Source: Octopus vulgaris
Lineage: Eukaryota
Reading direction: 5' to 3'
Length of the DNA stretch: 64,000 bases
Assembly: GCA_951406725.2 (NCBI GenBank)
Contig: OX597815.1
Coordinates: forward strand, 65,906,001 to 65,970,000
Shown one piece after another: positions 24,819 to 61,182 of the stretch. The translations under genes and the position numbers were made by a program. The notes beneath the pieces are model-generated. The model was not told the DNA's origin. It saw nothing but the letters and a program-made list of their open reading frames with translations, and did no database searches. The stretch's first letter is position 1. Each line of letters opens with the position of its first letter.

Positions 24819-24960
24819 ACTTGACTGATGAAAGAAAGCCAAGAATGACTCGTCTTTTTTTTTTTTTGCCTGTCCTTCTAATTGTTGTTTCTCTTGTCCA
24901 CCTCTGTGTTGTCTATCAGTCCGAACGTTTTAATGCCCTCTATTCCATTTTTGTTCCACA
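24819..24960 (+). mobile_element. 5'-truncated copy of the PLE-type terminal repeat carrying the permuted hammerhead
   Basis: acttga-CTGATGA-aagaaagcc; homologous to the reverse complement of 32070-32205. Confidence 0.7.
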
Positions 24961-26050: not shown

Positions 26051-26356
26051 ATATGCATATATGGGTACAGGACGTCACAAGACGTAAACAACATGAAATA
26101 CGAAAACGACATGGATTACGAAATACGAAAGCAACATGAAATACGAAGGCAAGTCTGGGTATGCGAACATACTCTGATGAAGGGTCGTTCTTTATGTTAC
26201 TTGTCTTGGTTTTCTTTTGTTTCTCTCGTTGTTCGCATATCTAGACTTGCCTTCTTATTTCATGTGGCTTTAGTGTTACGTAATCCATGTCGTTTTCGTA
26301 TTTCATGTTGTTATGTTGTTTATGTTTTGTGACGTCTTGTACCCATACATGCATAT
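26051..26356. repeat. Fold-back (about 120-bp inverted arms) of a PLE-type terminus
   Basis: Arms 26051-26169 and 26230-26356; spacer carries CTGATGA-aggg at 26174. Confidence 0.85.
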
Positions 26357-27074: not shown

Positions 27075-27274
27075 GTGCGTATGTATATATATATATACAC
27101 GTATATATCTAAGTATATACATATATATATGTGTGTATATATGCATATATATTTTTTATTTATATTATTATATGATTGAACGCCACGCATTCATTTCCAA
27201 GTAAGTTTAACTAATATATATATATACACATATAATTCTTCTTCGTCATCATCATCATTATTATTATCATTTCC

Positions 27275-28613
27275 TTGAAGAAAATAACCCAGCATGGATT
27301 TCGACCAGGTAGAAGCTGCCTAACACAGCTCCTGCAACACTATGACTGGGTGTTAAAACAGCTACTAAATGGCTCAAATGTGGATGTAATATATCTCGAC
27401 TTTGCAAAAGCTTTTGATAAAGTCGACCATGGTATGATCTGTCACAAACTGCGTGGTCTCGGCATAGGCGGGAAACTTGGAGAGTGGCTGCACAACTTCC
27501 TAAAAGACAGAAGACAGGCAGTTGTGAGCAATGGAGCCACCTCCAAGGAAACACAAATAACAAGCGGTGTTCCACAGGCCACTGCTGTTCATAGTGGCCC
27601 TTTCAGACATGCCTTCAGCTATGCAGATGACACAAAAGTCTCCCACACAATACAAAACCCTGAAAATATTGCGCATCTGCAACAGGAATTGGATACAATA
27701 TACAGGTGGGCTGAGGACAACAACATACAGTTTATTGCAAGTAAGTTCCAGGCCCTTCGCTACCGGCACACAAAGGTAAACGACGTGCAGGCTGGATACA
27801 CTGGCCCAGGAAGAATTGCAATCCCTGAGTCAAAATCAGTGCATGACCTGGGCATTGACATGAGCAATGATGCATCTTTCCAAGTGCATATTACTAATCT
27901 GGTGATAAAATGCAGACGGCTAGCTGGATGGATTCTCCGAACTTTCAGAACAAGAGAGAAGGAGACACTGATGGTCCTATGGAAAACATTCGTCCTCAGC
28001 CGCTTGGACTACTGCTCCCAACTATGGTCACCACACAATATAAAACTAACAGCAGAACTCGAAGCAATTCAGAGAAGCTACACAAAGAAGATCGTCTCAA
28101 TGCAAAATATCAGCTACTGGGAAAGACTGAAAGTATTAAACCTCTTCTCCCTAGAGCGGAGGCCGGAGAGATATGCGGTGATATACATCTGGAAAATCTT
28201 GGAGGGTCTTGTCCCAAACTTTGGCATTCAAAGTTACCCCAACCGCAGAACGGGGCGCCACTGCATGGTGCCAAAGATTCCAATATCACCATCAAAATAC
28301 AGGTCCAGATACTGCAACAGCTTGGGTTTCAGGGGACCACAGCTCTTTAACATCCTCCCTAAATGCCTGAGAGACTTACATGGTGTGGATGTGGGTTTCT
28401 TTAAAACAAAACTGGATCTCTTCTTGTCGGGAGTCCCAGATGAACCTACCTCACGATAGGAGACGCAGATGCGGGCAGCAGCATCGAACTCCCTTGTTGA
28501 TCAAGTGCCACGTATCAGAGGTGGATTCACATATTAGTGTAGCTCATTCAGCGGTGGTGCCCCAGCATGGCCGCGGCCTTCGGGCTAAAACATTTTTAAA
28601 GATTTAAGGATTT
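27275..28613 (+). mobile_element. 5'-truncated CR1-group LINE with reverse transcriptase ORF (27275-28459) and 3' tail
   Basis: QHGFRPGRSCLTQLL, YLDFAKAFDKVDH, SGVPQ, YADDTK, SRLDYCSQLWSP; local deletion/frameshift after SGVPQ. Confidence 0.92.
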
Positions 28614-31998: not shown

Positions 31999-32072
<74 letters not shown>

Positions 32073-32192
32073 GGAACAAAAACGCAATAGAGGACAAGAA
32101 AACATACGGACAGATAGACGATACAAAGGCGGCCAGGAGAAACAACAATTAGAAGGACAGGGAAAAAAGGACGGATCACTCGTAGCCTTCTT

Positions 32193-32264
32193 TCTTCAGT
32201 CAAGTTACCAGATGTCGTTACCGTTTCGGGCAGTTACACTTGAGACAGTTCGATCTGGTTGCCT
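32193..32264 (-). ncRNA. Strand-permuted hammerhead-like motif, copy 2
   Basis: Minus: ggca-accagat-cga-actgT-C-tcaagt-gtaac-tgccc-GAAA-cggt...atctggt-a-acttga-CTGAAGA. Confidence 0.65.
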
Positions 32265-34162
32265 ACCAAAAAGTCTAAGCTAAGAACATATTTTTTGTAA
32301 GAAAGCTAGCGAATGTGTACGGCAACAAGGACAAAATACGGAGAACATGGTACACAATTACAAATACAAACAAGTGTCTTTCGACTGAAAACTAATCAAA
32401 TTGTCCTCCCTCCCTCTGCCTCTCTCTCTCTCTCTCTCACTGAATCTCTCTGGCTTTCTTTTTGTCTCCTATCTATCCATGCGTCTCTCTGTTTTTCTCT
32501 GTTTCTGTCTCTCACGCTGTCTTGTCCATTCTTCTTCTTATACTTTCTATTCTGTTTCTGAAATCTGATAATTTTTCGTTATTTATTTCCAGAGGTTTGT
32601 TTCGTGTTGCGGATATTTTTCGCCAGAGAACAATTACAAATCGCTTCCTGACAGTCAGTATCGATCCTTCGTTGAAGCCAATTCTCTTTACTTGCACCAA
32701 TATTGATCTGTAGAATACCATGATTTCTACAATTCACCGGTAACAGACCCCTGCCAAATAATACAAACATATATGCCAAGACAAAGAATCCAAAATAGAT
32801 ACAACTGCGAAGCTTTGGGAATCACATCACATACTTCACTAATGCTCGTGCGAAAGGCATGAACGTTTCATCGTACTGCTCGTTTTTTGAATAAATTCAG
32901 CCTTTAATTTTGTGTAATAAATTATTAATTTCTGAGATTGGCTTTGAGCCAAAATATTAGAGGCGGAGAGGAGGGTTATAGTGTAATAATTTGGCACCAT
33001 TATTTGCCTGGTTTTTATCGATTTCAGATCAATGAAAAGCAAAAACAGCTTTGTAATTATTTGATCTCAGAGTATAAATACAGTTTGACAAGCATTGTAA
33101 ATAACTCTTACCCATAGGGACAATCACTTCTCTGAATAACAAATTATTGTTACTATTTTTAATGTCGAGAACTTGGTAAGTGAGTTTCCGATTAGATTTT
33201 AGTTCTGACTTGGAATCACTCGATTATCTTTTCTTTCGCTAATCCTTGTAATAAAGCATAATCCGATGTAATCCAATAATGAAGGTCTCAGGGTTGCTGT
33301 TGTTGCTTTTTTTTTTCTGTTAAAATATGTTACAGTAACGTCGACCGCTTAAATTGGTAAAGTACCAAACACTGTACCAAACTAGCTTCCAGTATTTAGT
33401 TCCAGCCGTCTTTGTTCCAATTTAAAAATTCTTTAGCTGAATTCGACATCATTTTATCATGCGACGCAGATACAGTAAAGTACCAATAATATATTGTGAC
33501 TGATTCAATATAAATTTGTTTTCAAAAATATTGGCTAGTGGATTAAATAAAATAAAAAATACTGCGACTTAGTGGATAAAAGTGTTGGAATCTTGCGAGA
33601 AATAAATATTCACAAACTTTAAACATCAACCTTCGGAAAACAAATGTAGCCTCTGTCAATGAACGAAGATGAAACAATTTGAAAGGCATTGTTTTGCCCA
33701 AGAGAAAATACGAACATCAATACCAGAGACACAAATTCCATATCACTGTTGTTGACAAATAAAATAAATTGGTTTGTCTGTAGTAAATTTAGTTGAAAAA
33801 CAGCTCAGCAGTTAGGCAGTTATGTATGTTAATTGTATCACAGAAGTCGTTTTAGTTATCATAATAACTAAAATTGCCGCCTTTTTACATTCCAATGAAA
33901 AAATATCATACTAAATAGTTCTGAAACTGAGTTTAATCAAATTTCTGAATAGCAGACTATTAATTAAATTTATCTGAATAGCAGCTGGTTGAATGAGTGC
34001 GTCCGTGTGTACTTACCTCTATATAAAAATAACCGATATAAATGTTGGTTGTTTGTTTGTTTGGTTGGTTGGTTGGTTGGTTGGTTGGTTGGTTGGTTGG
34101 TTGGTTGGTTGGTTGGTTGGTTAGTCCACTAGGTTTTTCATTGGAATAGATTATGATTATCT

Positions 34163-39150: not shown

Positions 39151-39419
39151 TACAGGTTGTGAACTCAGAATCTACATGCTTAGATGTGTTTAGATTTATG
39201 ATGCTGCTGTGACTTCAAGCACTGCCTTTCGAGGTAATCATGAATAAGTTTCGAAAGGTGAAAATGAAGGCTGTTTTTAAACCATATACATACGTACATA
39301 CATATATGCATATACACACGAACACAGACACAACCATACATACATTCATATATATATCAACCACGCGTTCTTGTCCCATTTTGTATTTTTATATATATAT
39401 TTTTATACATATATTATTG

Positions 39420-40255
39420 CGGCGTAACGTACACCTTGTTCTCTTCTATGTATGTAAGCATCCCACTACTGTACGACTTCTACACACGCTTTCTCTATAC
39501 TTCACTAGTCTCTGTCTTTCTCTTTTCTCGCCTCTGATTCTTTGGTCTCCTCTTCCCCCACTCTCTCACATTTCTCTGTCTTTCTCACTTTGCACCTCAC
39601 TGACCCTGCCTTTCTGTTGTCAAGCCAATCCTTGGCACGCTCTCTTTCTTCCCCCTCTTTAATTCCTTCTTTCTCTCTCTTCTCCCCTCTTTGGTGCCTT
39701 TGTCCCTCTTTTTCTCTCTCTCTTTGATTCTTTGCCCCTCTTTTTTCTCTCTCTTCTCCTCTCACGTGACCGCCGGTCAACTAGCCTTTCGGCTTCTGAG
39801 CACCGCCACGACAACATCGATTTCTTCGTCTGCCGTAAGGCATTATTTTCCAAATACGCCAGCTAAGCTAAGTTGAACTGTCTAAAGTCGTAAGACACCC
39901 GCTGTTTATGTCCTGTTATTATTATTATTGTTTTTTGTATTTATATTCGTGTGACATCGTCCGTTTTTCTGTCCTTGTTTCGTATATATTCGATCCTTTT
40001 TCCAAGAAATCTAATGCTCGTAGCTTAGTTTTTCCTTGGGGCTGGCTGGATCGGAGCGATCTCAAGATTAATCAGCCGAAATTGCGAGGATGATCCGGTT
40101 CTTGACTGAAGATTAGAGGCTTCGAATGACCCGTCCGTTTTTTGTGTCGTCTATTTGAATGTTTTGCGTTCTTGTCCCAGCGTCCAATAATACTATATTT
40201 TTTCCACGTCCTCGCGTTGTTGTGTTTTTTTGTGTTTTCTTGTTTGGATTAACTA
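39420..40255 (+). mobile_element. PLE-like terminal region (CT-rich tract plus structured terminal repeat) between (TA) runs
   Basis: Homologous to 32070-32360 (-) and 24819-24960; carries hammerhead core motifs. Confidence 0.55.
40040..40112 (+). ncRNA. Strand-permuted hammerhead-like motif, copy 1
   Basis: ggctg-gctggatc-gga-gcgaT-C-tcaaga-ttaat-cagcc-GAAA-ttgc...gatccggt-tcttga-CTGAAGA. Confidence 0.65.
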
Positions 40256-40484
40256 TATATATATATATTAATAAATGAAATAAAACATATGCATATATAT
40301 AAACATATATGTACGTACCTACCTCTACATGTACATATACACGCATATATGAGTACAGGACACCAAAGGGACGTCGAACACAATGAGAAACGAAAACATA
40401 GACACAAACCAAAGGAACTGGACATTTTTTAAAAACAACAAAAAAAATAGAGTACAGGACAATTAACACAAAGAAAAAACCCCT

Positions 40485-40536
40485 TCTTCAGTCGCTATGG
40501 TTTCATCTACTTTACGTTTCGAAGGATAAAAGCGAG
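40485..40536 (-). ncRNA. Strand-permuted hammerhead-like motif, divergent copy truncated at the predicted cleavage site
   Basis: Minus: C-tcgct-tttat-ccttc-GAAA-cgt...agcga-CTGAAGA-agggg. Confidence 0.55.
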
Positions 40537-42951: not shown

Positions 42952-43972
42952 CAGGGGTTGGACAAAATAATGTAAACACCTACATCACAATATCATAATT
43001 TTGAAATATTTATAAAACTGTCAAAAGCTTATCTATTTTTATGTTTTTTTTTTATCTATTAGTGTTGCTTAATATGTTTTGCTAAAATTGCTGTTTCTTC
43101 TCAGACATCATCAGAAAAAGGACTATCAGGACTTTCAAAGAGGTCAAATTGTTGGTGCTCGTATGGTAGGCGCAATGTAACGAAAACAGCCAAAATGATT
43201 GGTGTATCAAGAAGTACTGTCTGGAAAGGTATGACAGCCTTTGAGAAAGAGGGAAAAACTTCCTCGTCGAAACAAAACTCCGGAAGAAAACCAAAACTTT
43301 CAGATAGGGTCCGTCGGACTCTTACGCGAATTGTTAGAAAGGATCACAAAAGTACAGCTCCCAGAATTACTGCAGATCTTAATGACCACCTCGAGAACCC
43401 ACAAAAAACTGTTCGCCGGGAGTTGCACAAAGCCGGACTTCACGGGAGGGCTGCAATCAGAAAACTACTACTTTCAAAAACAAAAGTTGCAAAGCGTTTA
43501 GAGTGGAAACAGCTAAAAGAAGCATTTGACCCAGACTACCTTCTTCCGACTGTTAAACATGGAGGAGGATCAATAATGATCTGGGGTGGGGGTGGGGTCT
43601 ATAGCTTGGAAATCCGCCGGCCCAATGGTTTCCCTTCATGTCAGAATTAATAGTGAAGACTATTTAAGCATTTTATCTGATCAAATTCATCCTATGGTTG
43701 CGGAACTGTTTCCGGGGGGAAGCGCAATCTTTCAGGATGATAATGCACCAATTCACACAGCTAACGTTGTTGTTGAATGGCACGAGGAACATTCTACTTA
43801 TCTGGTCACCAAGGTCCCCAGATCTTAATATTATTGAACATTTAAGGTGCATTTTAGAAAAACAAGTAAGGAGTCGATATCCTCCACCATCATCACTACA
43901 AGAACTGGAGACTGTTTTAGCTGAAGAATGGACAAAAATTCCTTTGAAAACAATTCAAACTTTGTACGATAA
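42952..43972 (+). mobile_element. Tc1-like (DD34E) transposase pseudogene with left TIR
   Basis: TIR caggggttggacaaaataatg; SGRKPKLS, PTVKHGGGSIMIWG, FQDDNAPIHTA, SPDLNIIEHL. Confidence 0.9.
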
Positions 43973-57644: not shown

Positions 57645-60348
<2,704 letters not shown>

Positions 60349-60361
60349 ACGTATATATATA

Positions 60362-61182
60362 TACTCTCCTCCCCACTTCATCTAACCTCCTCCCCTCGCC
60401 TCTCTCCCCCTCACACATACATCCTCCCACCCACCTCTCCTCTTTTGCTCCGACTCCTTCTTCTCTTCATTCCCACTCTCCTTCTCTCTTCTCTTCACTC
60501 TACCCACCTTTTCCTCCCTCCCTTCATCGTCACCCCTCCCTCGTAAACCCACCCCACCCCTACACATTCCAACCCCACCTTCCGTATCCATCCCCATCCC
60601 ACTCCTTACACCCACTCCCGCATACCCCCAACTTTACGCCTACACCCCCCCCCCACTTCTACCCCCACCCTCAGCCTAACCAACACCCATCTTTGTTTTC
60701 GCCACTCCCGCCTCCCCCACCTCCCATCACCATCACACCACACTACACACCACTACACCTTACACCACCATACCACACAACACACCGCCACTAACACATC
60801 AGCACTGACCACTTCCCAGACCCATATTTTCACACCTACACATACACACAAGCACACGTCAAGATCACCAGCCCTCTTCCACACGCACAAACAAACTCCC
60901 TTATACACACGCACGCGCACCTTCGTTTTCGGCTCATCACTACTTTGTTATCTCCCCTTCTCCCTAACTCTCTTGTGTGACCCTTCTGTCCGGCCTTCAC
61001 CATGATAGATCGCTAGCCACTACACATTCTTTATTGTCTCTCCTTGTTTCTTTCGGTGTTCTTTTCTGTGCATTAGCGTATGCTCGAAACGTTAAAGCCT
61101 TTCACACTTCCCGGGCGTTATACTAATACATCTGTTGTCTACACCACCTGTATTCGTCTTTGTGTTTTTTTTGTGAATTCTA

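Follow-up and report, generated by a model that had tools for sequence, protein, structure and literature searches.

Eckert et al. (2023) divided the hammerhead ribozyme into three blocks, C, G and S, and found that the order S-G-C is natural (PMC10085705; here and below, the accessible part of that paper). In this type SGC, a 3-nt linker joins stems I and II while a helix ties the other ends of the two stems; the ribozyme cleaves at the expected site co-transcriptionally, and compensatory mutants showed that all four helices are needed. The authors took interruptions of block C at A9/G10.1 to amount to at most 1-2 nt, and in some SGC ribozymes the linking helix meets stem III without a spacer, a geometry that the authors left open. 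A second arrangement, type CSG, was published from only two metagenomic sequences.

Hammerheads are also found in retroelements. Penelope/Neptune elements with type I hammerheads and non-LTR retrozymes, so far as the accessible sources describe them, resemble the octopus families presented here in having a ribozyme in a terminal repeat and non-autonomous tandem units; their hammerheads are the circular permutation type I, whereas the octopus form has the reverse order and stems of 5-6 bp. Minimal type I hammerheads have short stems and cleave as dimers via a palindrome. The accessible part of a 2026 preprint on animal retrozymes deals with type I only. For Naiads, Craig et al. (2021) reported no canonical hammerheads, together with unexplained 'HHR_core' and 'HHR_half_core' annotations (PMC8557442, accessible part, as throughout).

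We examined a stretch of 64,000 nt of the Octopus vulgaris genome (contig OX597815.1; hereafter the window) that contains a hammerhead-like motif with non-circular strand order. Taken together, the data make it likely that this motif is a cis-acting split hammerhead with a reverse S-G-C cycle and a double pseudoknot, cut after C40061 and residing in Naiad/Penelope-like 3′ ends. The reversed order itself, at first thought to be an undescribed topology, is already known as type SGC, which cleaves at the corresponding site during transcription (PMC10085705). What looks new is the split CUGANGA block, the mass occurrence in a genome and the location in Naiad 3′ UTRs.

Architecture and covariation of the octopus motif

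All strands named in the original prediction were found between 39988 and 40127 on the forward strand (Table 1). The hairpin at 40002-39 and the long-range helix were confirmed in place, and the extra helix, counted before as 8 bp, has 9 bp including two terminal G-U pairs. From 5′ to 3′ the elements are P0a, Pa, II, linking helix, GA, III′-U-C40061, I, linker, II′-GAAA-III, GAG-GA, linking helix, I′-CUGAAGA and P0b, with stem III pairing 40056-60 to 40081-85. The CUGANGA, GAAA and UH nucleotides of the hammerhead core are all present, and the order S, G, C was seen both in the sequence and in a genome-wide pattern search. A helix connecting stems I and II at their other sides is present in both alignments described below (A1 and A2); with a linker of 5-6 nt it makes up the peripheral contact between these stems, with 4 pairs changed on both sides per alignment. 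MFE folding gives Pa, stem II and P0, the pseudoknots being outside what such folding can draw. Since block C is split, existing descriptors and Rfam models would miss the whole architecture; an Rfam search of the window at gathering thresholds returned 0 matches.

Table 1. Elements of the motif and related repeats, in window coordinates
Feature	Position	Strand	Remark
Outer helix, both strands	39988-92 / 40123-27	+	Alignment A1, helices 1 and 2 (outer, P0): 82% and 83% paired
P0 (long-range helix), both strands	39995-99 / 40115-19	+	Alignment A1 pairing; register less firm
Hairpin Pa, closing immediately 5′ of G10.1	40002-39	+	5/5 pairs change on both sides (alignment A2)
Stem II 5′ strand, G10.1-10.5, separated from CUGANGA	40040-44	+	Pairs with II′ 40073-77
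Linking helix ('I' helix of type SGC)	40045-53 / 40091-99	+	68% paired (A1), 73% (A2)
GA opposite GAG-GA, k-turn-like internal loop	40054-55 facing 40086-90	+	GA on both sides in 72/88 short-class copies
Block S: III′, C17, stem I strand	40056-60, 40061, 40062-67	+	Predicted cut 40061/40062
Linker, stem I far end to stem II far end, 5 nt	40068-72	+	~3 nt in type SGC
Block G: II′, GAAA, III	40073-77, 40078-81, 40082-85	+	
GAG-GA bulge strand	40086-90	+	
I′ and core CUGAAGA	40100-05, 40106-12	+	
Family A copy, non-coding Penelope-like element	39365..40179	+	801-bp unit 39379-40179 plus 14 bp of preceding unit
Family B copy, ~70% identical	32046..32403; CUGAAGA 32199-32193	-	Same architecture, near intact
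Family C copy	40254..40536; CUGAAGA 40491-40485	-	5′-truncated at C17/nt 1.1
Family B-like fragment	24819..24862	+	I′, CUGAUGA (24825) and downstream part only
Family E fragment	26174..26210	+	CUGAUGA and downstream part only; compared by eye with loci L204 and L237

The motif shares with type SGC (HRIMA-1 and variants; PMC10085705) the S-G-C order, the short linker, the tying helix, the double pseudoknot and the full core. In type SGC, however, CUGANGA runs into stem II and the RNA ends lie between C and S, whereas in the octopus form the ends lie inside C, with P0 and Pa at A9/G10.1. Type SGC was reported in metatranscriptomes only, without genomes of known organisms, while the octopus form occurs as a mass repeat of an animal genome. 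With type CSG the octopus form shares the reverse strand cycle, opened elsewhere, block C of CSG being intact and first.

To locate the stem II partner across copies, we examined 165 distinct copies, 128 of which keep stems I and III and formed the set for this test. A partner with at least 4/5 Watson-Crick pairs lay upstream of block S in 113/128 copies (5/5 pairs in 89), which upholds the predicted upstream position, and directly after CUGANGA in 1/128 (control window, 5/128). Among the first 30 genome matches, of which 29 are distinct and 18 keep both stems I and III, the corresponding counts were 16 upstream, 0 directly after, 5 downstream and 1 in the control. A contiguous block C with stem II at most 1-2 nt from CUGANGA, as in type SGC, is thus confined to that single copy; the motif would work like SGC but, with a block C that is not contiguous, is not classed as a member.

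Stem II could alternatively be made with GGCU at 40118-21, 5 nt past CUGAAGA, which would turn the motif into an ordinary type SGC. This 4-bp match is present in families A and B, and 4/5 pairs occur at one or other of 12 downstream offsets in 49/128 copies, yet 5/5 pairs occur downstream in none, against the 89 upstream. The downstream partner is 66% paired with its core-proximal pair formed in 14/26 A1 rows, compared with 87% and 23/26 for the upstream strand, and the GGCU match is missing in families C, D and E. The downstream partner was rejected because its pairing is inferior to that of the upstream strand across copies and A1 rows, and we regard an ordinary type SGC as extremely improbable.

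Stems I, II and III of the split form covary across families. Alignments A1 (26 rows) and A2 (14 rows, C/E class) were hand-picked among the 165 distinct copies for diversity and completeness, and three family D rows misaligned at block S of A1 were kept. In A1 the three stems are 87-91% paired with 4-5 double-changed pairs per stem, and in A2 they are 93-94% paired; the A1 covariation score was reached by 0/500 shuffles, a count that is not a probability because the rows are related. The 64 fully paired copies contain 7 different strand pairs in stem II, 12 in stem I and 18 in stem III. The search imposed CUGANGA, CGAAA and U16.1 and left position 17 free; in these copies it is C in 45, A in 15, U in 4 and G in 0, so that the NUH rule holds in 64/64. 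Absence of covariation had been named as a result that would count against a ribozyme; with covariation observed in all three stems, the core nucleotides present and the order S-G-C, both the hammerhead identity and the non-circular order stand. Judged from sequence, the split S-G-C motif is a real and probably active hammerhead.

In 83/113 copies Pa closes no more than 2 nt from G10.1, where shuffles predict 24, and the core is flanked by Pa and P0 together in 72 copies, with 17 expected from shuffles. P0 alone (G-U allowed) was no better than chance (37/88 vs 54/88 in a control window; 98 vs 93 in a second test), and what supports it is its placement: it follows A9 directly in families B, C and E, as it does in distant Naiads. 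Together with Pa and the core, P0 and stem II probably make up a four-way junction with strand exchange at A9/G10.1. The CUGANGA block, assumed to be indivisible, appears split by a hairpin and a long-range helix between A9 and G10.1, with the 5′ strand of stem II upstream, an arrangement that looks new. If the split form is true, CUGANGA and stem II can no longer be assumed to make up a single indivisible block, and the architecture would be an undescribed one: the catalytic core would form one arm of the four-way junction, with a kink-turn as the closure of the double pseudoknot.

The CChMVd(+) viroid hammerhead tolerates an extra A10 between A9 and G10.1, without a reverse order or two helices there (PMC3705267, accessible part), and the PK hammerhead has its stem II supplied by a pseudoknot, again without a reverse order or two helices at A9/G10.1 (PMC11300833, accessible part). 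The accessible part of PMC10162972 shows no precedent for added helices; that of PMC13725137 cites its ref. 13 for 'HHR variants containing additional helices', which could be a precedent. A literature search that covered mostly papers outside subscription yielded neither a hammerhead with helices inserted between A9 and G10.1 nor non-circularly permuted hammerheads in retroelements or animal genomes. Within the reach of that search, this would be the first family of non-circularly permuted hammerheads from a cellular genome.

The bent joint and cis versus trans action

Where stem III meets the linking helix, the joint has GA facing NNN-GA in 72/88 short-class copies and contains GAA facing AGUA in 17/25 long-class copies. 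We take the first to be the kink-turn consensus and the second that of loop E/sarcin-ricin. As in a kink-turn, the loop has a 3-nt bulge and then tandem G-A/A-G pairs, with a helix on either side; no k-turn-like loop is present in the coral, clam-shrimp and Clytia examples. A sharp bend at this point would turn the linking helix back alongside the III/II stack, so that it could reach stems I and II at their far ends, as a monomer needs; this suggests an answer to the geometry left open by Eckert et al., namely how the linking helix gets to stem III.

It had been proposed that the hairpin loop cannot reach its own base and that the motif works obligately in trans or as a domain-swapped dimer, with one RNA's loop docking into the junction of another. 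Such swapping is made formally possible by a double pseudoknot that is closed by a long-range helix; partial tandem copies do exist, and minimal type I hammerheads of Penelope-like elements are described as cleaving as dimers in the accessible literature. The argument from reach is not supported, since stems I and II of a hammerhead lie side by side, some SGC linking helices adjoin stem III directly, and here a conserved bent joint is located exactly where a monomer requires one. The co-transcriptional assays in which type SGC cleaves are described as cis kinetics (PMC10085705), so an obligate trans dimer is not needed. Docking between tandem units likewise finds no support in the repeats themselves: units measure ~800 bp, most copies carry one ribozyme, and upstream partial copies are usually without an intact one, mostly lacking blocks II and S. 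Since SGC is published as cleaving co-transcriptionally and the repeats form no short tandem arrays, the simpler reading is cis action; an obligate dimer is not supported on present evidence, and we consider it highly unlikely.

In the cis-acting fold that we propose, the open RNA ends would be placed inside block C of a reverse-cycle (S-G-C) hammerhead. Stem II would stack on the A9-G12 core as usual, with A9 continuing into P0 and Pa feeding G10.1. The linking helix would tie the far ends of stems I and II, the bent internal loop folding it back from stem III, and the predicted cut falls after C40061. The ribozyme would sit in the 3′ UTR/pseudo-LTR of Naiads and of non-coding Penelope-like repeats such as the 801-bp unit, where it would cut multimeric or read-through transcripts. 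Cut linear RNAs would then give rise to short copies starting at nt 1.1, and uncut or circularised RNAs to long copies with an intact ribozyme.

Copies in the genome and their 5′ ends

The window contains all core strands in two copies (40106+ and 32199-). The expectation of at least five copies therefore holds if fragments are counted (40106, 32199, 40491, 24825 and 26174) and fails for intact copies. A strict descriptor applied to 264 kb, made up of the window plus 20 stretches of the genome, gave 1 match, the 40106+ copy; the 5 shuffles gave 0 each. A loose GAAA-N-CUGANGA pattern gave 4 matches in the window alone, weak evidence given that 3/100 shuffles reach 4. Between 40179 and 40254, the family A copy, which is without the usual ~35-nt 3′ tail, adjoins a piece of another repeat, followed tail-to-tail by the family C copy; elements of the two families sit nested in each other's TA-rich ends.

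Across the genome (2.8 Gb, 227 contigs), the pattern CGAAAY-N21-25-CUGANGA had 31,467 matches, compared with 1,626 for a reversed-pattern control, and many covarying families of Penelope-like elements stand behind the GAAA-before-CUGANGA matches. On these sequence counts, the split hammerhead may be among the most abundant ribozymes of the octopus genome, with ~30,000 recognisable copies. Candidates number 2,532 for family A, 3,010 for family B and 1,901 for family C. Family A is young, the 40 of its candidates that were scored all being 98-100% identical. It consists of an 801-bp unit with a constant 3′ end and tail, variable 5′ ends, head-to-tail partial tandems, inverted 5′ pieces and TA-repeat flanks, and copies reach at most ~1.25 units. 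Non-LTR retrozymes carry a type I hammerhead in each tandem unit; the S-G-C order and the copy length place family A outside them. No attached ORF, and nothing coding of the Penelope-like kind, was found at 60 family A loci.

We then asked whether the predicted cut leaves a footprint in the 5′ ends of truncated copies, taken as junctions to TA runs on the reverse strand with one row per locus. Such ends number 96 at 40033-53 (4.6 per nt); at 40040-70 the count is 670, and at 40071-89 it is 418 (22 per nt). Among the 23 distinct loci listed for 40040-70, 20 start at 40062-70 (6 of them exactly at 40062) and 3 at 40050-51. Immediately 3′ of the predicted cut the density of starts is ~63 per nt, vs ~5 per nt on its 5′ side, a step that may be inflated in that 40062-70 is AT-rich, favouring microhomology, and the anchors span different subfamilies. 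For the C families, among ~28 loci listed, ~22 start at or after nt 1.1, 5 before it and 2 exactly there (by eye), giving a step at nt 1.1 with no sharp spike. Five upstream partial copies of family A (L020, L100, L101, L112 and L118) span the predicted cut, which fits uncut or circular templates. The step at 40061/40062 is an indirect sign that points to cleavage in vivo; RT stalling on structure should act further 3′, where helices are first met.

A structure derived from a hammerhead but no longer cutting, serving as a recognition signal for the RT/endonuclease or as a stability element, would sit well with the long copies, most of which come from templates uncut at the 3′ ribozyme, and the break between A9 and G10.1 might harm catalysis. 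Against it stand the NUH rule kept in 64/64 copies, a hammerhead core preserved from ctenophore to octopus (by eye, in the accessible part of the Naiad sequences treated below) and the rise in 5′-end density at the scissile bond, and we judge this loss of activity unlikely.

Two further mobile elements were recognised by eye from translations, a LINE-type RT fragment at 27235-28400 (+) and a Tc1/mariner-like transposase fragment at 43062-43650 (+). A separate repeat at ~60900-61180 (+), also seen at L002:170-210 and 1240-1270, has a minimal type I-like core in the order C then G; normal and reverse-order forms thus coexist in this genome.

Relation to Naiads and other Penelope-like elements

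The anatomy of family A, with tandems, inverted pieces and TA targets, is that given for Penelope-like elements (PMC8557442). Partial pLTR tandems, a tail of 30-40 bp, inverted 5′ copies and (TA)n insertion are found in family A as in Naiads, and the octopus families share with Naiads the 3′ UTR/pseudo-LTR site, the short 3′ tail, the partial tandem or inverted insertions and the (TA)n targets. Unlike Naiads, families A, B, C and E lack an ORF, and their DNA does not resemble a Naiad body (similarity compared for A).

We therefore read by eye, using no program, the last 300-420 nt of 53 of the 54 Naiad consensus sequences (PMC8557442). The split form was seen in 11/53 tails (Bfor, 3_Chem, Amil, Aacu, Anas, 2_Movir, Plae, EuTe, Obim, Ovul and Esco), stem I being short in Bfor and stem II imperfect in Esco; since the three Acropora and the two Octopus entries are near-identical, these amount to ~8 independent cases. 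Type CSG, apparently complete, was seen in 6/53 tails, all from nematodes (1-, 2- and 3_Nbra, Hcon, Hpol and Asuum), and two spider tails have the S-G-C order with an ambiguous stem II. No such motif was seen within the visible part of the other 34/53 tails.

A motif of a published Octopus Naiad had 267 exact matches in the genome (control, 0). Among 30 RT loci, taken with 1.3-1.5 kb flanks, the family D motif lies on the same strand 0.7-1.4 kb downstream of a Naiad-type RT, completely in 11 loci and partly in 2; Pfam RVT_1 matched this RT with E 1e-5 and 2e-4, below the curated cut-off. Naiads have a GIY-YIG domain N-terminal to the RT. A GIY-YIG remnant was found 2.1 kb upstream of the RT at locus L196, which aligns with the motif-bearing loci L143, L197 and L199, where the RT is followed by the motif. 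Family D of this genome is a Naiad 3′ end. Family A has the architecture and spacing of family D, yet neither such an ORF nor DNA similarity to the Naiad body.

The Naiads at the RT loci covered here are decayed, as is a Penelope-like element at 57800-60340 (-) with an RT as well as a C-terminal GIY-YIG. Intact relatives of the latter, with a 753-aa RT-GIY-YIG and an upstream ORF, are present at L183, L186, L187, L188, L194 and L195; the motif was not found in ~750 nt of 3′ flank at 7 loci of this element. No mobiliser of the young families A and C was found among the family A loci, the decayed Naiads and this intact element.

The split hammerhead is likely the missing ribozyme of part of the Naiad clade and would account for its apparent lack there, offering a direct answer to the puzzle of elements with no canonical hammerheads and unexplained half cores. 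More broadly, we lean towards the view that reverse-cycle hammerheads are old and widespread in the Naiad clade, with nematodes carrying CSG and a ctenophore, cnidarians, an acanthocephalan, a crustacean and cephalopods the split form, which would combine a four-way junction with a kink-turn and be active in vivo, in ~30,000 copies. CSG in nematodes and split SGC elsewhere would make a natural series for the interconversion of non-circular permutations, and the Naiad 3′ UTR slot may accept interchangeable ribozymes.

Other motifs were noticed as well. At L183, L186, L187 and L195, ~350-400 nt past the ORF stop, CUGAAGA stands between two complementary stretches, but a proper GAAA or UH is missing; this may be a hammerhead-like form that is degenerate or of a further kind. 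The Naiad-1_Movir and Naiad-4_Chem tails presumably resemble the twister ribozyme consensus. A different conserved motif, CGGG-UG ... GCAG ... GCUYAC ... CACCUG, occupies the same 3′ UTR position in the accessible tails of CGi, Sglo, Olur, Tgra, Pmar, Skow, Pfla, 1_Chem and 2_Chem and is possibly another ribozyme (PMC8557442). The bivalve tails Mgal, Bpla, Mphi, Scon and Mmer of the same collection share a third conserved motif.
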